Assembly (NCBI GenBank): GCA_003518055.1
Contig: DOZJ01000006.1
Coordinates: 136,912 to 200,911 of the forward strand
Source: Candidatus Falkowbacteria bacterium
GTDB taxonomy: Bacteria > Patescibacteriota > Patescibacteriia > UBA11705
Reading direction: 5' to 3'
DNA: 64,000 nt
The notes under the pieces are model-generated. The model worked only from the letters and a program-made list of their open reading frames with translations, was not told where the DNA came from and did not search any database. Shown here one piece after another: positions 3,601-64,000 of the stretch (the first letter of the stretch is position 1; every line of letters starts with the position of its first letter). A program made the translations under genes and the position numbers.

Positions 3601-3652
3601 GGGTCGGGGGTAGGGTTTAGGGAACCATTGTGATGATTTTTGCCTAAAATAA
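3601..3652. repeat. Promoter-proximal repeat copy L (GGGTAGGGTTTAGGGA...TTGTGATGATTTTTGCCTAAAAT)
   Basis: About 50-nt near-identical copy of the sequence at 4033-4084. Each copy sits just upstream (minus sense) of a consensus promoter. Confidence 0.6.
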
Positions 3653-4032: not shown

Positions 4033-4084
4033 GGTAGCGGGTAGGGTTTAAGGGAGAGTTGTGATGATTTTTGGCTAAAAATTT
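4033..4084. repeat. Promoter-proximal repeat copy R
   Basis: GGGTAGGGTTTAAGGGAGAGTTGTGATGATTTTTGGCTAAAAA, a near copy of 3601-3652. Confidence 0.6.
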
Positions 4085-5352: not shown

Positions 5353-5490
5353 TACCCACCTACGCTCTTACTTCCACCTACGCATAACGCTTATGCCTTC
5401 GCTAAAGCTATGGCATACAGGTCGGTGGACAGGGCGTAGAGCTACGGCGCCTGCCTGCCGGGAGGCAGGGGCGCGGCGGAAGTAACGAGG
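5353..5490. repeat. GC-rich dispersed repeat R1 (CCCACCTACGC / GCTAAAGC / CGGCGGGCAGG family)
   Basis: Shares the CCCACCTACG, GCTAAAGC and CCTGCCGGGAGGCAGG/CGGCGGGCAGGC cores with copies at 9570-9690, 38322-38440 and 49880-50021. Here it is frameshifted and non-coding. Confidence 0.6.
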
Positions 5491-9030: not shown

Positions 9031-10245
9031 ATGAAAATCGGCATTGATGCCTCGCGGGCGAATAAGCCCATAAAGACCGGCGTGGAGTGGTATTCATACC
9101 ATATAATTCAAGAACTCAAAAAAATTGACAGCGACAATCAATATTTTTTGTATACCAACACGCCGCTTGATATGGGGTTGGAGAAGTGTCCGGGGAATTT
9201 CAAAGAGGTGTGGCTCAAATGGCCGCTTCGCTATATGTGGACTTTGATTCGGCTCAGCTGTGAAATAAAATTCGGGAAAACCAAACCGGATTTGTTGTTT
9301 GTGCCGGCTCATACGCTGCCGCTGGTTAATCCATCCAAATCGGTGGTAACCATTCATGACATCGGATATGAACGCTTTCCGGATTTGTACAAATGGCCGC
9401 AAAGATTTTATCACAAATGGAGCTCAAGATTTGTAAAAAAACACGCGACAAAAATTTTGACCGTGTCGGAATTTTCCAAAAAAGAAATAATGGAAGTGTA
9501 TGGCGTGCCGGAGGAAAAAATCGCGGTGGTTTATAATGGGTATGATAAAGATGTATATGGGTTAAGGGGGCGTGAGGGGGCTGAAGAGGGTGGGGTTACG
9601 AAATTACCCACCTACGCTGATGCTCCGGCGGGCAGGCAAAACATTACCCGCCTACGCATGGGCTACGGCGGGCAGGCAAAAAGTTACGAAAACAAGACTG
9701 CTGTAAATGGGCAGTATATGATGTTCGTCGGCCGGTTGGAGGCGAAGAAAAATATTGAGCGTCTGCTTGACGCGTTTGTGACTTTCAAGGCCAAAAATCC
9801 TGAGGATAAACACAAACTGGTGTTGGTTGGCAAGCCAAGGCCGGAGTTTCAGCAAAAGATGATGCGGCTCGCCCTTGAAAATAAAGATAATGATATTATT
9901 CATTTTGAATATTTGAAGGCGGCCGAGGTGGCGTCGTTGTTGCATCGGGCGGATTTGTTTGTGTTTCCGTCGTTGTATGAAGGTTTTGGCATTCCGGTGC
10001 TGGAAGCCATGGCCTGCGGCTGTCCGGTGATTTGCGCCAATACGACATCTTTGCCTGAAGTCGCGGGTGAAGCCGCGATTATGTTTGATCCCGAACGGGT
10101 GGATTTGATCGTAAAGGCGATGGAAACCGTGCTTTTTAATCCCACCGTTGCGGTGGCGTTGAAGGAAAAAGGTTTGGAGCGCGTCAAGGCGTTTTCATGG
10201 AATAAAGCAGCGAGGGAGATAAAGGAGATTATGGAAAAAATATGA
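9031..10245 (+). CDS. Glycosyltransferase family 4, carrying an in-frame repeat insertion
   Basis: C-terminal EGFGIPVLEAMACGCPVI...E GT-B retaining-GT motif. A low-complexity insert (GLRGREGAEEGGVTKLPTYADAPAGRQ...GYGGQAK) is encoded by repeat R2. Confidence 0.8.
   Translation: MKIGIDASRANKPIKTGVEWYSYHIIQELKKIDSDNQYFLYTNTPLDMGLEKCPGNFKEVWLKWPLRYMWTLIRLSCEIKFGKTKPDLLFVPAHTLPLVNPSKSVVTIHDIGYERFPDLYKWPQRFYHKWSSRFVKKHATKILTVSEFSKKEIMEVYGVPEEKIAVVYNGYDKDVYGLRGREGAEEGGVTKLPTYADAPAGRQNITRLRMGYGGQAKSYENKTAVNGQYMMFVGRLEAKKNIERLLDAFVTFKAKNPEDKHKLVLVGKPRPEFQQKMMRLALENKDNDIIHFEYLKAAEVASLLHRADLFVFPSLYEGFGIPVLEAMACGCPVICANTTSLPEVAGEAAIMFDPERVDLIVKAMETVLFNPTVAVALKEKGLERVKAFSWNKAAREIKEIMEKI
9570..9690. repeat. 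GC-rich dispersed repeat R2 (tandem half-units) in frame within the GT4 gene
   Basis: TTACCCACCTACGC...CCGGCGGGCAGGCAAAA occurs twice in tandem, preceded by a G-rich GGGGGCGTGAGGGGGCTGAAGAGGGTGGGG leader. Confidence 0.6.
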
Positions 10246-11476: not shown

Positions 11477-12553
11477 ATGGGACGTAAAATTATTTTAACC
11501 GGATTAATTTTAATGTTGTCAGTGACTCTCACCGGCTGTATTTCATTTGGGAAAAAAGAAACAGCGGCTGGCAGTGGTGTGGGCGCAGTTGCCACCGGCG
11601 ACAGAGGAGATACTTGGGTTGCGAAATATAAATTGATGACTCCCGGCGCGATTGAGGCCAATATCGGCGGTGTTAATGTCACGACGATCGAGATGGATCC
11701 GACTGATACTAACGCGATTTATATGGGTACGCGCGGTAATGGTTTGTATTATTCTTATAATGGCGGTGACGGGTGGGATCACGCGGATGTGTTGTCCAAA
11801 GTCGCGGCCGGACAGATCAATTCAATATCGATTGACGCCAAAGATAAATGCAGCGTGTACGCGGCGGTCACCAATAGAGTGGTTAAAACCAGTGACTGCA
11901 ATCGAACGTGGCAGCAGGTGTTTAACACGGCTAAAGCTGATGAGGCGGTAGTCGATGTGGTGGTGGATTGGTTTAATACTTCTATCGTTTACGCGGCGGC
12001 AAAAGACGGTTCAGTGTATCAGAGTGCTAATGCCGGCGCCAGCTGGGCTAAATTGGCGGATGTTGAGCAAGAAATCAAAGAATTGGAAATCAGTTCAAAA
12101 GACAGCCGCGTGTTATTTATGACAACTGTGGCGGCCGGATTGTACAAATCAACTGATGGCGGTAAAAGCTGGCTGAGTATGAATGAGCGGATGGAATCTT
12201 TGGGCGGCAAGTATCGCAATGGTTACGCGGTGGCAGTGTCGAAAAATAATCCGGGCAAAGTATTTTATCTGTCGCGTCTCGGGCTGCTTCAGAGTTTTGA
12301 TAACGGTGAAACTTGGTCAAAAATCGCATTATTAACCGGTGAAAACGAAGCGACGTTCAATGCTCTCGATGTTTCAGTCAAAGATGATAATTTGATCTTT
12401 TTGGTCAGCGGCAGTACACTTTATCGCACGGTGAATGGCGGTCAGACGTGGGAAACGAGGAAGCTTCCAAGCACGGCAATTTTAACTGATTTGGATGTTC
12501 ATCTGGCAAATGACAAGCTGTTGTTTGTCGGGTTCAGTGCGCCGCAGAAGTAG
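11477..12553 (+). CDS. Lipoprotein with BNR/Asp-box beta-propeller repeats
   Basis: Lipobox LTGC. Repeated S-x-D-x-G-x-(S/T)-W motifs (TDGGKSW, NGGQTW, DNGETW, NAGASW). Confidence 0.55.
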   Translation: MGRKIILTGLILMLSVTLTGCISFGKKETAAGSGVGAVATGDRGDTWVAKYKLMTPGAIEANIGGVNVTTIEMDPTDTNAIYMGTRGNGLYYSYNGGDGWDHADVLSKVAAGQINSISIDAKDKCSVYAAVTNRVVKTSDCNRTWQQVFNTAKADEAVVDVVVDWFNTSIVYAAAKDGSVYQSANAGASWAKLADVEQEIKELEISSKDSRVLFMTTVAAGLYKSTDGGKSWLSMNERMESLGGKYRNGYAVAVSKNNPGKVFYLSRLGLLQSFDNGETWSKIALLTGENEATFNALDVSVKDDNLIFLVSGSTLYRTVNGGQTWETRKLPSTAILTDLDVHLANDKLLFVGFSAPQK

Positions 12554-12555
12554 CG

Positions 12556-12592
12556 TTTAGCGTATAGGGTATAGCGTATAGAGTGAAATAAT
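12556..12592. repeat. AGCGTTTAGCGTATAGGGTATAG repeat copy
   Basis: Same motif forms the arms of a long imperfect palindrome at 34795-34915. A weaker copy lies at 59330-59390. Confidence 0.45.
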
Positions 12593-34794: not shown

Positions 34795-34915
34795 TTGTTA
34801 TTATAAGAGCGTTTAGCGTTTAGGGTATAGGGTATAGTGATTAGATACTTACGCTATATTCATTATATATACAGTTATCTTATTATAAGCGCTAACCGCT
34901 ATACGCTAAACGCTT
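34795..34915. repeat. Long imperfect palindrome built from AGCGTTTAGCG/TATAGGGTATAG repeat arms
   Basis: Left arm GAGCGTTTAGCGTTTAGGGTATAGGG. Right arm CGCTAACCGCTATACGCTAAACGCT, followed by TTTTTT. Confidence 0.5.
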
Positions 34916-34919
34916 TTTT

Positions 34920-36005
34920 ATGATATTCAAACTCAAGAAAAATATTACGGTGGCTGTGGGTATGAGCGGCGGTGTAGATTCGTCAGTCGCGGCGGCACTA
35001 TTGAAAAAACAAGGCTATAATGTCATTGGCGTATATTTTATTACTTCAGCCCAGACTACCAGCGGCAAAATTAGGGATAACATCTGCTGCTCGCTCGAAT
35101 CGATGATGGATGCGCGTAAAGTCGCTCAGCAGCTTGGGTGTAAATTTTATACTATTAATTTGCGGACCGTTTTTAAACAAAAAGTTTTTGATGATTTTAT
35201 TCATGAATATGAATCCGGTCGAACGCCCAATCCGTGTATTCATTGCAATAAATTCGTAAAATTTGGCGAGGCGTTGCAGAAGGTAAAGGCGATTGGGGCT
35301 GATTATTTGGCGACCGGCCATTATGCTCGGGTCAAAAAGTCGCGGGATGGAAAGTTTCATCTATACGAGGGCAAGGATAAAAAAAAGGATCAAACATATT
35401 TTTTGCATTCATTAACGCAAGAGCAGTTGGCGCATGTCATTTTCCCCTTGGCCAAACTGATCAAACCGCAAGTTAGAAAATTGGCGGCCAAGTTTAAGTT
35501 GCCGACGGCCAGTAAAGTTGAATCACAGGAAATTTGTTTTATTCCTGACGGTGATGTGGCCAAATTTTTACGCGAGTATATTGAATTCAAGCCGGGGGAT
35601 ATCATTGATGTTGAAACAAAAAATAAAATCGGCCGACACGATGGGCTGCAGCAGTATACGGTTGGGCAGAGAAAAGGTATCGGTCTGCCCGGTGGCCCGT
35701 GGTATGTCGCGAAATTGGATATAAAAAATAGTATCTTGTGGGTGACAACCGATCTCAATGTGATAAATAAAAGTTTCATGCGGCTCAAAGATATTCATTG
35801 GATTACCGGTGAACCGAAATTACCAACCAGAGTTACGGTAAAAATACGTTACAATTCAGAGCCAGTGGCCGTAAAAGTAAACCCAAAACAAAACGGTTTT
35901 TATCTTGTAGAATTCAAAAAACCGCAAAAAGCTATTGCCCCGGGTCAATCGGCCGTATTTATGAAAAAAAATGAGTGTCTGGGTGGAGGGATAATCGATG
36001 AATAG
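34920..36005 (+). CDS. mnmA: tRNA-specific 2-thiouridylase MnmA
   Basis: PP-loop SGGVDSS, catalytic Cys and a C-terminal beta-barrel. 361 aa. Confidence 0.85.
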   Translation: MIFKLKKNITVAVGMSGGVDSSVAAALLKKQGYNVIGVYFITSAQTTSGKIRDNICCSLESMMDARKVAQQLGCKFYTINLRTVFKQKVFDDFIHEYESGRTPNPCIHCNKFVKFGEALQKVKAIGADYLATGHYARVKKSRDGKFHLYEGKDKKKDQTYFLHSLTQEQLAHVIFPLAKLIKPQVRKLAAKFKLPTASKVESQEICFIPDGDVAKFLREYIEFKPGDIIDVETKNKIGRHDGLQQYTVGQRKGIGLPGGPWYVAKLDIKNSILWVTTDLNVINKSFMRLKDIHWITGEPKLPTRVTVKIRYNSEPVAVKVNPKQNGFYLVEFKKPQKAIAPGQSAVFMKKNECLGGGIIDE

Positions 36006-36089
36006 TATAGGCTGGTTTAATTTGCCAGTTGACAAATTATCGGTATATAGTATGTTGATGAGTTCATTTACAAGCCAAGGAGGGGCTCC

Positions 36090-36269
36090 ATGATTCAAAA
36101 ATTAGTTGCCATTTTAACGGTTCTGACTTTGTGGCTCGTGTATTTTCTTGTTTATTTACCAACGACAAAAGATTCAATCTACGTGGAAGCTTATGTGGGA
36201 ATTCTGGTTTTTACTGCTACTTATTGTGGGGTGAAGATCATTAGAATTAAGAATAAAGACAATAAATGA
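36090..36269 (+). CDS. Small 2-TM membrane protein (tandem paralog 1)
   Basis: 59 aa, RBS AAGGAGGGG. C-terminal motif ATYCGVKIIRIKNKDNK is shared with the next ORF. Confidence 0.4.
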   Translation: MIQKLVAILTVLTLWLVYFLVYLPTTKDSIYVEAYVGILVFTATYCGVKIIRIKNKDNK

Positions 36270-36314
36270 TACTTGTTTTTTCTGTCTCTCAACTACAGCC
36301 CAAAGGAGTACCGC

Positions 36315-36509
36315 ATGATCAGAATTCGCACCATTATAATTATTCTAGTTGTTTGCTGGTTGATCTTTGGCGTTATTTGGCGATTTATTGCCAGCTCGTT
36401 TATTTGGGGGTTTATGTTCGTTTTGATGTTGTTTGCCACGGCTTGCGGGGTGATTGCGATTAGACAAAAAATCAGGGGAAATAAAAACCGCGATTTACGG
36501 TTATTATGA
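36315..36509 (+). CDS. Small 2-TM membrane protein (tandem paralog 2)
   Basis: 64 aa, RBS AAAGGAG. C-terminal motif ATACGVIAIRQKIRGNKNRD. Confidence 0.4.
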   Translation: MIRIRTIIIILVVCWLIFGVIWRFIASSFIWGFMFVLMLFATACGVIAIRQKIRGNKNRDLRLL

Positions 36510-36587
36510 GAACGAAGAAAATCGTTCTTTTTTGTTTGAACTTTGAATGTGGTGGTGGTATGATTTTGTATCCCCAAAGGAAAACGG
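36508..36587. repeat. Direct repeat DR-a (terminator hairpin GAACGA..TCGTTC + T-run + RBS module)
   Basis: About 80% identical over about 78 nt to DR-b at 37093-37170. Confidence 0.5.
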
Positions 36588-36694
36588 TTTTTATCTCGTA
36601 GAATTCAAAAAATCGCAAAAAGCTATTGCCCCGGGTCAATCGGCCGTATTTATGAAAAAAACGAGTGTCTGGATGGAGGTATTATAAATGAATA
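36576..36694 (+). pseudogene. Duplicated 3' end of mnmA (about 120 bp, frameshifted fragment)
   Basis: More than 90% nucleotide identity to 35884-36003, with a 1-nt deletion in the A-run. Located about 570 bp downstream of the intact mnmA stop. Confidence 0.6.
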
Positions 36695-36804
36695 ATTAAT
36701 CTGATGTTATCTTGATGTTTTTGGTATTTTAATTAACCCTTGACAATCATATACAATCTGGTAATATATGTAATCTTGTCCCCAGCAAGCAAAAGGAGGG
36801 GCCG

Positions 36805-37086
36805 ATGTCAGGATGTCAGTGTCATTGTGCTACGGTTGAAGTTCAGACCAGAATTCATTTTTTCTTTAAGGAAGATGAGGTCACGATCAATTTTCAACCT
36901 AGAAAGGCTGACCCTGTGGTTGAGGATCGCAATCTTGATCGGGCGTGGTCTATGGCGCCGGAATATGTTAAAGCGGTTGTTTTTTATGATCTGGTAGTGG
37001 CGACGACTCAAGAATTGAACGAAGCATGTCATAAGGTTGTCTGTACCAGCCAGCCGATTCGAGTGTCGCAGGCCTTTACTCGGTGA
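36805..37086 (+). CDS. Small Cys-rich hypothetical protein
   Basis: 93 aa with MSGCQCHC N-terminus. Own promoter TTGACA...TAATAT, RBS AAAGGAGGGG, and terminator GAACGATAAGATCGTTCTTTTT. Confidence 0.35.
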   Translation: MSGCQCHCATVEVQTRIHFFFKEDEVTINFQPRKADPVVEDRNLDRAWSMAPEYVKAVVFYDLVVATTQELNEACHKVVCTSQPIRVSQAFTR

Positions 37087-37092
37087 TGATTT

Positions 37093-37170
37093 CAGAACGA
37101 TAAGATCGTTCTTTTTGTTTGACATTGATAAGTGGTCGTGGTATGGTTGTCTGTTCCCAAAGGAAGGGGG
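37093..37170. repeat. Direct repeat DR-b
   Basis: Second copy of the terminator-RBS module. Confidence 0.5.
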
Positions 37171-37177
37171 AAAAACG

Positions 37178-38218: not shown

Positions 38219-38321
38219 ATAAGACGTAATTAAGAGCTAAAAATGCTCTTTTTTCATTTGCAAAACTTAGTAGAATAAGATAGAATGTTTGTATTAACTA
38301 CAACTTGTCACATTGAGTTTG

Positions 38322-38440
38322 CCGAAGGGTACGACATGCTTCCCGCCTACGTTACACCCTATGCTAAAGCTTCGGGTGTCAAGAAAACTCCGGCGGGCAG
38401 GCGAGAGCCTTCCACCTTCACTCAAGTTTCGGTGGACAAG
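38322..38440. repeat. GC-rich dispersed repeat R3, in frame upstream of alaS
   Basis: ATGCTTCCCGCCTACGTT...GCTAAAGC...CCGGCGGGCAGGCGAGAGCC. Encodes MLPAYVTPYAKASGVKKTPAGRREPS, contiguous in frame with AlaRS. Confidence 0.6.
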
Positions 38441-38457
38441 CAGTATGACAAAAAGAA

Positions 38458-40309
38458 TATGACGACTCACGAGCTCAGAAAAAAATATTTAGACTTTTTT
38501 AAAAGTAAAGGGCATGCCATCATTCTTTCCGCCTCTTTGATTCCGGAAAATGATCCAACGACATTATTTACCGGTTCCGGTATGCAGCCGATGGTGCCAT
38601 TTTTGCTTGGGCAAAAACATCCGCTTGGGACAAGAATTGCGGATTCGCAGCGGTCTTTTCGAACGCAAGATATAGAAGACGTGGGCGACAATAGACACAC
38701 GACTTGTTTTGAAATGCTTGGTAACTGGAGCCTCGGAGATTATTTTAAAGCAGAGCAAATTCCGTGGATGTTTGAATTTTTGACAGAAGAATTAAGGCTT
38801 GATCCCAATCGATTATACATTACCGTCTTTGGCGGCCAGAAGGAAATCGGGATTGACCGTGATGATGAAGCGGTTGAATTGTGGCAAGAGCAATTCAAGA
38901 AAAAAGGGATTGACGCTAAGGCGCTCGATGATGCGAAAGTTGATGGTATGCGCGACGGCCGGATTTTCTATTATGATGAAACCAAAAACTGGTGGAGTCG
39001 AGCTGGTATAACTTCAAATATGCCGGTCGGTGAACCGGGTGGCCCCGATTCGGAGATATTTTGGGATTTTGGCGTTGAAAGAAAAATACATGAAAATTCT
39101 ACTTACAAAAATGAAGAATGCCATGTAAATTGCGATTGCGGCCGATTCGTGGAAATCGGGAACAATGTTTTTATGCAATATATTAAAGCTGAAACTGGTT
39201 TTGATGAGTTATCGCAGCGAAACGTGGATTTCGGCGGTGGATTGGAACGCATGACAATGGCCACGATTGATTCACCGGATATTTTCCATATTGATTTGTT
39301 TCAAGTGGCGATAAAAAAACTGGAAGAACTCAGCGGAAAAAAATATAATGATAATGTTGAGGATGACAAAGCCTTTCGAATAATTGCCGATCATCTGAAA
39401 GCGGCGACCCTCTTAATTTATGATGGTGCGATTCCATCAAATGTGGATCAAGGTTATTTCACCCGCAGATTAATTCGACGGTCAATCCGTTATGCCAATC
39501 AATTGGGTATTACTAAACATTTTGCGATCGAAATAGTGGGATCATATATTGAATATTATTCTCAGGTTTACAATATTGCAGAAAAGAAAAATTTTATTAT
39601 TCAAGAAATTCTCAAAGAAGAAGAAAAATTCAGCAAAACTTTGGAGCGGGGAATCAAAGAGTTTGAAAAAATGGCGGAGAAAAAACAGATGAGCGGCGAG
39701 GAAGCGTTTGTTTTGTTCTCAACCTATGGCTTTCCATTTGAAATGACAGAGGAGTTGGCCAAGGAAAGCGGATTTGAAATTGACAGAGTCGCCTTTGATG
39801 CCAAATTTGCCAAGCATCAGGAACTCTCCCGTCAAGGCGCGGAAAAGAAGTTTAAGGGTGGGTTGGCTGATCATTCGGAGAAAACCACAAGATTGCATAC
39901 CGCCACTCATTTGCTTCATGCGGCGCTCCGAAAAGTTTTGGGCGATCATGTGTTTCAGAAGGGCAGCAATATTACGGAAGAACGGCTTCGATTTGATTTT
40001 TCCCATCCGGAAAAGATGACACCAGAGCAGCTTGAACAAGTTCAGACGTTGGTTAACGGCTGGATAAAAGCCGATTATCAGGTGAGCTGTGAGGAATTGC
40101 CTTACGATGAAGCCAGAAAACGAAATGTGATGGGTTTGTTTGACGATAAATATGGTGATATAGTAAAAGTGTATTCGGTTGGCGATATCTCAGCTGAAAT
40201 GTGTGGCGGACCGCATGTTACTCATACCGGTGAGCTTGGACAGTTTGAAATAAAGAAAGAAGAAGCCAGTTCGGCCGGTGTCAGAAGAATTAAAGCAATA
40301 TTAAATTAA
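38458..40309 (+). CDS. alaS: Alanyl-tRNA synthetase (catalytic + editing domains, no C-Ala domain)
   Basis: Class II core (FTGSGMQP, GNWSLGDYFK) and editing-domain HxxxH...CGGxH. The upstream in-frame ATGs at 38285/38336 would add a repeat-encoded extension. Confidence 0.8.
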
Positions 40310-49879: not shown

Positions 49880-50021
49880 TTGTCACCCTGAGGAACTCGA
49901 AGGGTGAGTCTTTAAACGCTTGTCTATGCTTCCCACCTACGTTAAAACTTCTGCCTTCGTTAAAACTCCGGCAGACAAGCCGGCGGGCAGGCGAGAGCCT
50001 CAGCATGACAAGTTTACTTAA
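49880..50021. repeat. GC-rich dispersed repeat R4 with intact 31-codon ORF (49926..50021)
   Basis: Contains ATGCTTCCCACCTACGTT...CCGGCGGGCAGGCGAGAGCC. Encodes MLPTYVKTSAFVKTPADKPAGRREPQHDKFT, homologous to the R3-encoded extension of AlaRS. Confidence 0.55.
49881..49910. repeat. Hairpin repeat H3 (reverse complement of H1/H2)
   Basis: GTCACCCTGAGGAACTCGAAGGGTGAG. Directly abuts repeat R4. Confidence 0.55.
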
Positions 50022-58615: not shown

Positions 58616-58803
58616 TTGACGAAATATTTATCTTTTGCTAAAATATAAATACAAATTAATTCCGCAGACTGCAAGTGTCGATAGACTTAAATATCTTGCA
58701 TAGGAACGAATAAGAGCTTACGGTCTTTGAGCCGTTAGTTTTTAGAAGATAAGTCTGCGGGGAACCGGAGATATTTTTTTACTAATTATTCATTTTTAAC
58801 AAT
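58616..58803 (+). promoter_or_regulatory. rplJ promoter (TTGACG-17-TAAAAT) and structured 5' leader (L10-leader-like autoregulatory element)
   Basis: About 150-nt untranslated leader enclosed by a long-range pairing CCGCAGAC (58662-58669) / GTCTGCGG (58753-58760), consistent with an L10(L12)4-binding leader. Confidence 0.45.
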
Positions 58804-59322
58804 ATGGCTAAAACTAAGCAGCAAAAAGAAGATTTTATTTCTTTGCTCAGAGACAAGCTGTCTGAAGCCAAAGGTGTTGTGGTCGTGAGTTACACTGGTT
58901 TAAATGTTCCTAATACCGAGGAACTTCGCAATAAGTGTAAAAACGAGCAAGTCAACTTCATGGCGGTCAAAAAGACCTTGCTAAAGAAGGTGTTGAGTGA
59001 GTTGAAACTTGATGACGTGGAGCTGGATTACTCGGGTAGTTTGGCCGTGGCCTTTGGTCGTGAGGATGAGATCGCTCCGGCAAAAATCTTGAATGATTTT
59101 GCTAAAAAACATGAAGAAATAGTGTTTAAGGGCGGAATTCTAGAATCAAAGATTATCGGGGTTGAAGGCGTAAAGGTATTGGCGGCAATTCCAAGTAAAC
59201 CTGAATTGTACGCAAAACTTGTCGGATCGTTGAATGCTCCGATCAGTGGATTTGTCAATGTGATGGCGGGAAACTTACGGGGTTTGGTGAACGTGCTTAA
59301 CGCAATTAAAAATAATAAATAA
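58804..59322 (+). CDS. rplJ: 50S ribosomal protein L10
   Basis: 172 aa, collinear with L10. Confidence 0.9.
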   Translation: MAKTKQQKEDFISLLRDKLSEAKGVVVVSYTGLNVPNTEELRNKCKNEQVNFMAVKKTLLKKVLSELKLDDVELDYSGSLAVAFGREDEIAPAKILNDFAKKHEEIVFKGGILESKIIGVEGVKVLAAIPSKPELYAKLVGSLNAPISGFVNVMAGNLRGLVNVLNAIKNNK

Positions 59323-62833: not shown

Positions 62834-64000
62834 AACGATTTTTATGAAAAAATATTTGATGGCGGTTTTTTTTATCGTTATGCTGGCGGGATGTGTGATG
62901 TGGGCTTTTTCCGCTCGGGCGCAAATTGAAGATGCAACTGAGCTCCGTGTTTATAGTCATGGCTTGGAGCTGCAACAGAAGCTGGAATTGTTCGCGGATG
63001 ATTTTCCCGGCTATTTGGATTTCGATTTGATTGATCTCGGAGGTGATGGGATTGATGAAGTTTTGCTTGGAATGGGATATCAAGCGAAACCCACGGTGCG
63101 TTTGCTTCGAAATGATGGCAGTGAGATAAATTCATGGCAGCCGTATGTGGCTGGTTATGAGGGGCGGGTGAATGTGGCTTCTTATGATTTTGATGGTGAT
63201 GGTCTGGAGGAAATTGTGACCTCTCCCGGTGAGGGCGGCGGACCTCAGATTCGGATCTTTGACGGTTATGGCCAACCGAAATTTTCTAATGGATTTTTTG
63301 TATATGATAAAGGTTATCGCGGCGGTGTAGAAATCGCCATCGGTGACGTTAACGGTGATGGCCAAGTGGAAATCGTATCCAGTCTTTATGCTGATGGAAA
63401 GAATATTATTAATTTTTATGATCATTCTGGGACCAAGGTGTTGAGTGATATTGTGATAGATGCTGTTGATGCATTCGAACCCATGAAAATCACAGTTTTG
63501 GATGTGGATTCTGATGGTCTGGATGATATTATTATGGGTTCAAGCGCAGGGATGCGGTCGACCGTTTTAGCCTATAATATTTTTGGTGAGAAAGTTTTGG
63601 AGTTTGATGCCTATGCTTCTGGTTTTAGAGGCGGGGTTGATGTGTCTGTGTCTTATTTCAACGGAGTCCCATATATTACCACCGCGGCCGGATTCAGCGG
63701 CGGACCTCACGTGAGATTTTTTGATGTTAATGGACAATCGAGAATTAATCCGACATTCTTTGTTTATGATAAAGACTTTCGGGGTGGTGTGAATGTGGCA
63801 TATGGCAACTTGATTGGAAATAACGAGGTAGTGGTTGTGCCGCAGACATTGCAGTTAGGCGGTGATTTGCCGGCTGGTTATAAAGTGATTAAGGTTGATT
63901 TATCAGAGCAAAAATTGTACGCCTATACTCGTGGCCGGTTGGAAAAATCGTTTTATATTTCTTCCGGCAAGTGGGGATATGATACGCCGATCGGAACATT
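62834..64000 (+). CDS. FG-GAP/VCBS-repeat beta-propeller fused to L,D-transpeptidase (YkuD) domain; 3' end truncated by the window
   Basis: Signal peptide. Repeated D-x-D/N-G-D-G-x-x-E/D-I motifs (DFDGDGLEEIV, DVNGDGQVEIV, DVDSDGLDDII). C-terminal ...KVDLSEQKLYAYTRGRLEKSFYISSGKWGYDTPIG is the start of a YkuD catalytic domain. Confidence 0.6.

Follow-up and report, generated by a model that had tools for sequence, protein, structure and literature searches.

Within the 64,000-nt stretch of contig DOZJ01000006.1 analysed here (the window), which comes from an uncultured Candidatus Falkowbacteria bacterium of groundwater, a member of the candidate phyla radiation (CPR), the gene mnmA is followed by a small islet with three short genes and two pairs of direct repeats (Table 1). 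The genes of this locus are: mnmA itself, which codes for a tRNA 2-thiouridylase; TM1 and TM2, which code for small proteins with two hydrophobic segments each; a gene for a 93-aa protein; the gene for a DHH-family phosphoesterase; and alaS. The repeats are formed by the mnmA 3' end (the functional copy A and a displaced copy A') and by a terminator/promoter/ribosome-binding site (RBS) module (C and C'). A preliminary description of the window had given this anatomy correctly and had treated the two repeat pairs as separate; taken together they form a single two-unit head-to-tail array, and this points to a duplication-type event or to illegitimate recombination. We regard the array as the probable product of microhomology-mediated illegitimate recombination in a variable islet, and not of an integrase.

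The two-unit array and its genes

The displaced copy A' is 91.06% identical to A over 123 nt with one gap, as seen by blastn, by alignment and in the analysis of repeat families, and the pair is the top-scoring direct repeat of the window. A 31-nt repeat probe finds exactly two matches in the 64 kb, namely A and A', where 0 are expected. The gap corresponds to the loss of 1 nt within an A-run, which shifts the frame of A'; the pseudo-copy still matches the C-terminal barrel of MnmA (Pfam PF20258, tRNA_Me_trans_C, E 1e-5). In the product of the intact gene Pfam recognizes the tRNA_Me_trans HUP domain (E 5e-77), the PRC-barrel (3.5e-23) and the C-terminal barrel (1.9e-21). A functional 46-aa open reading frame (ORF) across the pseudo-fragment was considered and rejected, as it is without an RBS.

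The second repeated segment, the module, occupies 36508-36582 and 37094-37165. Both copies have the same stem (GAACG..CGTTC), a T-run, -35- and -10-like hexamers and the sequence CCCAAAGGAA; the alignment that runs from the hairpin as far as the spacer has 51 identities in 61 aligned bases and 4 gap columns, and the promoter part has zero-mismatch matches at these two sites only. A search against Rfam found no family in or near the islet. Both duplications, together with the 1-nt deletion in A', had been recorded in the preliminary description, and both are real.

The motif CCCAAAnnAA at 35882 (as CCCAAAACAA), 36573 and 37156 (both as CCCAAAGGAA) bounds two consecutive units, with periods of 691 and 583 bp. 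Unit 1 (35882-36572, 691 bp) begins at CCCAAAACAA (35882-35891), inside mnmA, and carries TM1 and TM2, the genes of the orphan small membrane proteins; the 93-aa gene is in unit 2 (36573-37155, 583 bp). The order of parts is the same in both: the mnmA 3' end, a promoter-leader, coding sequence and a terminator/promoter/RBS segment. The start of unit 2 is the sole novel joint: its CCCAAAGGAA agrees at 10/10 positions with C', in the RBS region of the DHH gene, and at 8/10 with the mnmA codons CCCAAAACAA, and it is thus an 8/10 microhomology between sequences that are non-adjacent in the ancestral order. The promoter-leader of TM1 (36004-36092) is also weakly homologous to the leader of the 93-aa gene: when 95 upstream regions of the window are compared with the latter it ranks first with a score of 20, the others having a mean of 6.7 (standard deviation 3.2, maximum 15). 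A miniature inverted-repeat transposable element (MITE) or transposon was rejected as the source of unit 1: the 691-bp unit does not end in inverted repeats, and a target-site duplication would be far shorter than 123 nt.

The joint and the leaders bear on one alternative, a templated patch, in which a chimeric filler of ~200 bp (module C plus the mnmA end, 36490-36694) would have been copied from nearby DNA in break repair or template switching and inserted between TM1-TM2 and the 93-aa gene when these were already adjacent. A microhomology joint of two non-adjacent local sequences is typical of template switching, and such a patch would account for the unrelated coding sequences. However, it needs three joints instead of one, its outer ends would have to meet the mnmA stop codon and the end of TM2 by chance, and it leaves unexplained both the likeness of the promoter-leaders and the excess of synonymous differences between A and A' (see below). 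Hence, we consider this alternative very improbable.

The arrangement recurs in the JGI assembly (L001), in the ENA groundwater assemblies L002, L004, L005 and L104 and in fragments from other studies (L105, L106). All eight TM1-bearing contigs have the stacked arrangement or fragments thereof; the locus is 99.95-100% identical across assemblies, with single-nucleotide polymorphisms confined to mnmA outside the repeat. The preliminary description had named an assembly artefact as a ground for refutation, and such an artefact could consist of a chimeric join of two strain variants or of an expanded repeat. Short-read unitigs do break inside the repeat, in that L006, L111 and L112 all begin at 36632. 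Against this, at least six independent assemblies, which differ in assembler and in sample, give the identical islet, and a single 1.9-kb contig spans it; the joint is unique sequence, which an overlap of 6-10 nt could not have created at k=127-141; and the copies differ at 11 positions. Since at least six independent assemblies agree, the chance of an artefact is minimal.

The 59-, 64- and 93-aa ORFs each have an AGGAG-type RBS 5-6 nt 5' of the ATG, and the two smaller ones each encode two hydrophobic segments, as the preliminary description had it. The paralogy that it saw between TM1 and TM2 is weakly indicated by their sequences and is still probable: they have a global identity of 30% and a common ATxCGVxxIRxK tail, and tblastn without composition correction pairs them at E 5e-5 as reciprocal sole matches in the window, but a BLASTP comparison gives no match. 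The second small ORF is called differently in the databases, as 65 aa in another frame (36266-36463) by JGI and ENA and as the 64-aa TM2 (DF272_05935) by NCBI; we favour the 64-aa frame because of its RBS and its likeness to TM1. TM1-TM2 carries its own promoter-like site, two strong RBSs and a terminator. That both ORFs are still intact at ~30% identity argues, at the level of sequence, that TM1 and TM2 are real genes, and these genes appear to be orphans. The preliminary description had pointed to the rest of the genome and to mobile elements as places where the small proteins might recur: a TM1/TM2 profile run against 5.8e9 proteins returned self matches only, and the TM1/TM2 cargo was found neither in IMG/VR, nor in phage genomes (blastn), nor elsewhere in the 64-kb window.

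Table 1. Features of the mnmA-DHH interval, with positions in the window.
Feature	Position	Strand	Basis
mnmA (tRNA 2-thiouridylase), intact, 361 aa	34920..36005	+	Pfam domains
Repeat copy A, functional mnmA 3' end	35882..36004	+	repeat search, alignment, blastn
Promoter-like sites upstream of TM1 (TTGCCA-18-TATAGT; TTGACA-16-TATGTT)	36022..36056	+	consensus scan
TM1, 59-aa orphan small protein, two hydrophobic segments	36090..36269	+	ORF, AGGAGG RBS, hydropathy
TM2, 64-aa orphan small protein, two hydrophobic segments	36315..36509	+	ORF, RBS, hydropathy
Module C: terminator hairpin (36508-36529), T-run, promoter-like TTGAAC-17-TATGAT (36536-36564)	36508..36572	+	repeat comparison, consensus scan
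Novel joint CCCAAAGGAA, start of unit 2	36573..36582	+	three-way comparison
Repeat copy A', displaced, frameshifted mnmA 3'-end pseudo-copy	36573..36694	+	alignment, Pfam
Promoter-like site of the 93-aa gene (TTGACA-16-TAATAT, with TG)	36740..36767	+	consensus scan; sister comparison
93-aa gene, 5 Cys, no Pfam family	36805..37086	+	ORF; orthologue in sister
Module C': hairpin (37094-37112), promoter-like TTGACA-17-TATGGT (37119-47), RBS region CCCAAAGGAA (37156-65)	37094..37165	+	repeat comparison, consensus scan; homologous segment in sister
DHH-family phosphoesterase (NrnA-like), 346 aa	37178..38218	+	Pfam DHH, E 1e-8

The mnmA-alaS interval in related genomes

No strain- or species-level relative is present in the collections searched: a scan of the GTDB species genomes with MnmA gave a best match of 47% and no close relative; a metagenome scan with the DHH protein gave nothing; and a metagenome DNA scan with a degenerate pattern of the mnmA end detected a sister species only. 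This sister species is the nearest relative, with MnmA 76% and DHH 52% identical. Its gene order (contigs L093 and L087) is: mnmA, a frameshifted IS200-like Y1 transposase gene, a 92-aa orthologue of the 93-aa protein, an insertion sequence (IS), DHH, alaS and MutS. It has neither TM genes nor a duplicate of the mnmA end, and no such duplicate occurs in any of the five relatives compared (the sister and four more distant ones), each of which has a single mnmA end. The sister's 92-aa protein (L093:7739-8017) is 42% identical to the 93-aa protein and is encoded at the equivalent position. Its gene has a conserved promoter and leader, in which the TTGACAA and leader motifs of the 93-aa gene are kept, and a terminator hairpin, T-run and spacer homologous to C and C'.

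As the same set occurs in the sister species, unit 2, with the 93-aa gene, C' and DHH, is ancestral. Likewise, because the homologous hairpin, T-run and spacer come after the sister's 92-aa gene, C' is, to judge from its sequence, the ancestral copy of the module and is predicted to serve the DHH gene. Since the sister has the orthologue of the 93-aa protein, the terminator and DHH, and has no TM genes or duplicate, module C is a copy of chromosomal DNA and not the end of an element.

Among 1.8e9 cluster representatives the sole true orthologue of the 93-aa protein is P0244 (E 7e-12, exhaustive HMMER). Its AlphaFold2 model has a pLDDT of 54.6 and is not usable. The 93-aa protein also has weak multi-stretch matches to large TPR_12/TPR_10 repeat proteins (E 4e-11 to 1e-3), which we treat as spurious, as Pfam calls no TPR on the query; they probably arise from summation of scores over repeats.

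Several features of the sister locus concern its transposase genes. The Y1 transposase pseudogene (L093 7122-7607) is split into 92 + 60 aa, with a Pfam Y1_Tnp match of E 1e-3 for the second part, and begins 2 nt past the mnmA stop codon, which leaves no room for a left-end hairpin. All sister contigs break within the IS between the terminator of the 92-aa gene and DHH (L093 8116-8193; L087/L088/L089 1-140). The IS transposase has the N-terminus MAKTIKEERLRWVLPIV and the C-terminus ...YNNLEHCGLDGKTPNEF; these short pieces have no Pfam match, and the protein is presumably rve-like.

In more distant relatives the backbone PilM ... Peptidase_S11, mnmA, alaS, MutS is kept, and in still more distant ones the DHH gene is located elsewhere. 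The gap between mnmA and alaS measures 72 bp in L114; in L099 it is 710 bp long and has no called genes, and in L115 and L116 it holds other ORFs. Across the relatives its length ranges between 72 bp and about 2.3 kb, its contents differ in every relative examined, and in the sister they include the IS200-like and IS elements. Since the content varies in this way across relatives, the mnmA-alaS interval is a hotspot for lineage-specific DNA. The fallback of the preliminary description, a recombination hotspot, accordingly holds for the interval past mnmA.

Origin of the array

The first choice of the preliminary description was a site-specific integration with an attachment-site (att) duplication. 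In such a scenario a small element without integrase, either an island in decay or a cassette that is mobilisable in cis and was moved in trans, would have entered the mnmA 3' end and supplied a replacement gene end, the 123-nt repeats being attL and attR. Several features would suit this scenario: 0.57 kb of orphan DNA lies between direct repeats that include the 3' end of a gene; mnmA is intact and the distal copy degenerate; and the insert is absent from the sister species. However, site-specific integration produces element-specific DNA at both inner ends and normally leaves a recombinase gene behind. In the islet, the inner right 75 nt are a copy of the chromosomal DHH terminator/promoter/RBS module, the joint falls at a microhomology with that same module, and the inner promoter-leader on the left resembles that of the resident 93-aa gene. 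No gene for an integrase or recombinase was found in the 6 kb to either side or among 20 other ORFs of the window, in line with what the preliminary description had itself observed, and the insert itself holds only the 59- and 64-aa ORFs, which have no Pfam family. Further, the cargo occurs nowhere else, neither in the protein, viral and phage collections named above nor in the metagenome DNA scan, and a full-text search for mnmA with integration site and attB gave nothing relevant. We hence set the att duplication aside as improbable.

A second alternative dispenses with foreign elements altogether: the ancestral unit would have been duplicated in place, by slippage or unequal crossing-over at CCCAAAnnAA, and TM1-TM2 would afterwards have replaced the upstream coding sequence. 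This shares with our preferred explanation the same joint and the same non-integrase nature, and differs only in the source of the second unit. It accounts equally for the joint and for the homologies of the flanks, and it needs no donor lineage, none having been observed. The differences between A and A' allow the two to be compared. Five of them are synonymous and 3 nonsynonymous, and in addition the stop codon changes from TAG to TAA; the synonymous and nonsynonymous distances are 0.26 (dS) and 0.036 (dN), with a dN/dS of 0.14; the synonymous distance is near that between C and C' (0.185). The total is compatible with decay of A' in place (8 substitutions against 12.1 expected, P 0.15). However, about 7.9 nonsynonymous changes would be expected under such neutral decay and 3 are observed (P 0.046), and 6 of the 9 differences, the stop codon counted, are synonymous (P 0.05-0.12). 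Moreover, the second event would have to swap the coding sequence exactly, from the start codon to ~15 nt before the stop. We retain duplication with later replacement as a minor possibility.

Our preferred explanation is a single illegitimate exchange between two CCCAAAnnAA sites, by which both repeat pairs and the joint are explained. Starting from an ancestral order like that of the sister (mnmA, promoter, 93-aa gene, terminator/promoter/RBS, DHH), the exchange would have joined CCCAAAGGAA of the DHH-side RBS region to the similar mnmA codons CCCAAAACAA ~0.6 kb upstream. This would set a second unit, with its own mnmA 3' end, promoter-leader, coding sequence and terminator/promoter/RBS, in tandem with the first, so that the end of mnmA itself would stay intact and its second copy would become the frameshifted pseudo-fragment. 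The two units were probably diverged alleles of one locus from two related lineages, a TM-gene allele and a 93-aa allele, stacked either via homology-facilitated illegitimate recombination (HFIR) after DNA uptake or via unequal exchange. We infer the two-lineage origin because the units differ only in coding sequence and the mnmA ends mainly at synonymous sites; the latter differences are suggestive of units that were already distinct alleles when they were stacked. The outcome would be a new, self-contained TM1-TM2 operon. Transcription from the orphan promoter copy of module C would enter the mnmA pseudo-fragment, where no start codon follows the RBS, and the expression signals of the 93-aa gene and of DHH would be unchanged.

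Several points weigh against an illegitimate exchange between two alleles. The interiors of the units show no similarity (their local alignment scores 12, and shuffles score 11.5 +/- 1.3); a plain duplication is therefore insufficient, and one has to assume either that a donor allele existed or that coding sequence was replaced later. A single-unit, TM-type donor allele was not found among the contigs searched, since every contig with TM1 or with the 93-aa protein has the two units stacked or is a fragment of this array. The likeness of the promoter-leaders could partly reflect a common promoter and RBS consensus. The argument from synonymous and nonsynonymous changes comprises 8 substitutions, is suggestive, and could be distorted by gene conversion between the copies. 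HFIR usually deletes recipient DNA and does not duplicate it. Finally, the nearest comparator is distant, with the MnmA and DHH identities given above, which leaves both the age of the event and its polarity poorly constrained.

A bolder extension sees a chromosomal slot here, with three conserved expression signals (the mnmA 3' end, the promoter-leader, the terminator/promoter module) as its fixed 'handles'; small-protein genes would be exchanged in it by recombination, and occasionally stacked, among related Falkowbacteria, in a cassette-like system that needs no recombinase. In a related version, the 691-bp unit would be a minimal element of a new kind, brought to the mnmA 3' end in trans. 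We hold these readings to be doubtful. Whichever way it arose, the scar records a change of gene content in a small, streamlined genome of an uncultured CPR bacterium without mobile-element machinery: one microhomology joint would suffice to place a self-contained operon for orphan membrane proteins beside an essential tRNA-modification gene. If the units do come from two lineages, the scar would be natural evidence for DNA uptake and HFIR in this group, and the mnmA-alaS interval would be a place to seek strain-specific small proteins.

Surrounding features and comparison with known systems

The DHH protein is identical to NCBI DF272_05945, and its homologues are labelled nanoRNase/pAp phosphatase by JGI; the locus lies on the JGI contig Ga0103682_10000028. 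Type IV pilus-like genes (PilM, N_methyl) are found 3 kb upstream. The longest ORF of alaS has a 58-aa N-terminal extension (window 38285-38458) that crosses a G+C-rich repeat at 38342-38401; on comparison with the 602-631-aa AlaRS of relatives, the conserved start is probably the ATG at about 38459, which encodes MTTHELRKKY.

An imperfect palindrome of ~125 nt (34799-34925) lies directly upstream of mnmA and overlaps its ATG (34920). Its predicted RNA fold has -42.9 kcal/mol (z -5.4 against shuffles); mnmA is without an obvious RBS, and the sister has four extra genes at the position of the palindrome. Possible readings are a MITE-like scar and a hairpin for translational control. The arms of this hairpin are formed by a motif of short period in which heptamers of the type (A/T)TAGGGTATAG come after AGCGTTTAGCGT; the motif occurs at 12552-12585, after a stop codon, and at 34808-34840 (4 matches against 0.25 expected).

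The G+C-rich repeat that the alaS extension crosses belongs to a family of the form CCCRCCTACG ... CGGCGGGCAGG, with members on the + strand at 5355-5460, 9607-9636, 9647-9676, 38342-38401 and 49932-49991. The pair at 9607-9676 is in tandem, and the copy at 38342-38401 is in the DHH-alaS spacer adjoining the islet; the repeats have weak hairpin potential, and a comparison with Rfam gave no family matches. They may be like repetitive extragenic palindromic (REP) sequences; the sister's gene at mnmA, of the IS200 type and like REP-associated tyrosine transposases (RAYT), may be compared. Elsewhere in the window a ribosomal protein L10 leader (RF00557, 56.4 bits) at 58644-58788, upstream of an ORF at 58804, is the sole Rfam family at gathering score. 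Two further direct repeats are present: 63235-63328 / 63697-63790 (94 nt, 70% identity, spacing 462 nt) and 3602-3649 / 4033-4080 (48 nt, 83% identity, spacing 431 nt).

Known systems offer four comparisons. Elements that target gene 3' ends and supply a replacement end include ICESt3 at fda, SCCmec at rlmH/orfX and the islands at tRNA and tmRNA genes; their derivatives without integrase are the cis-mobilisable elements (CIMEs). The islet resembles them in a direct repeat that includes a gene 3' end, in the intact target and in the degenerate distal copy. It differs from them in that it has no recombinase, its inner end is chromosomal, the insert measures 0.69 kb and the cargo occurs nowhere else.

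Microhomology-mediated tandem duplication or unequal crossing-over comes closer in form, with head-to-tail units, a single microhomology joint and flanks homologous in order and orientation; unlike in a plain duplication, the interiors of the two units are unrelated. In HFIR, as it is described in PMC6382021 (citing de Vries & Wackernagel 2002), DNA is joined at microhomologies of 3-10 bp beside a homologous anchor, in naturally transformable bacteria (Prudhomme et al. 2002; Meier & Wackernagel 2003, as summarised there). The islet likewise is anchored on one side in mnmA, a conserved homologous gene, has its other joint at CCCAAAnnAA with 8/10 agreement, and holds foreign or orphan DNA between. 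It differs in three respects: 123 nt of recipient DNA are duplicated instead of deleted; the incoming DNA would carry a homologue of the downstream module of the recipient; and the mechanism is read from the scar alone.

The scar opens no new class of system, the type of event being already known. With the flexible genomic islets, lastly, it has in common a conserved backbone, variable content past mnmA and IS elements in relatives; it differs from them in its very small scale, that of single small ORFs, and in having two variants stacked in one genome in place of alternating between genomes.

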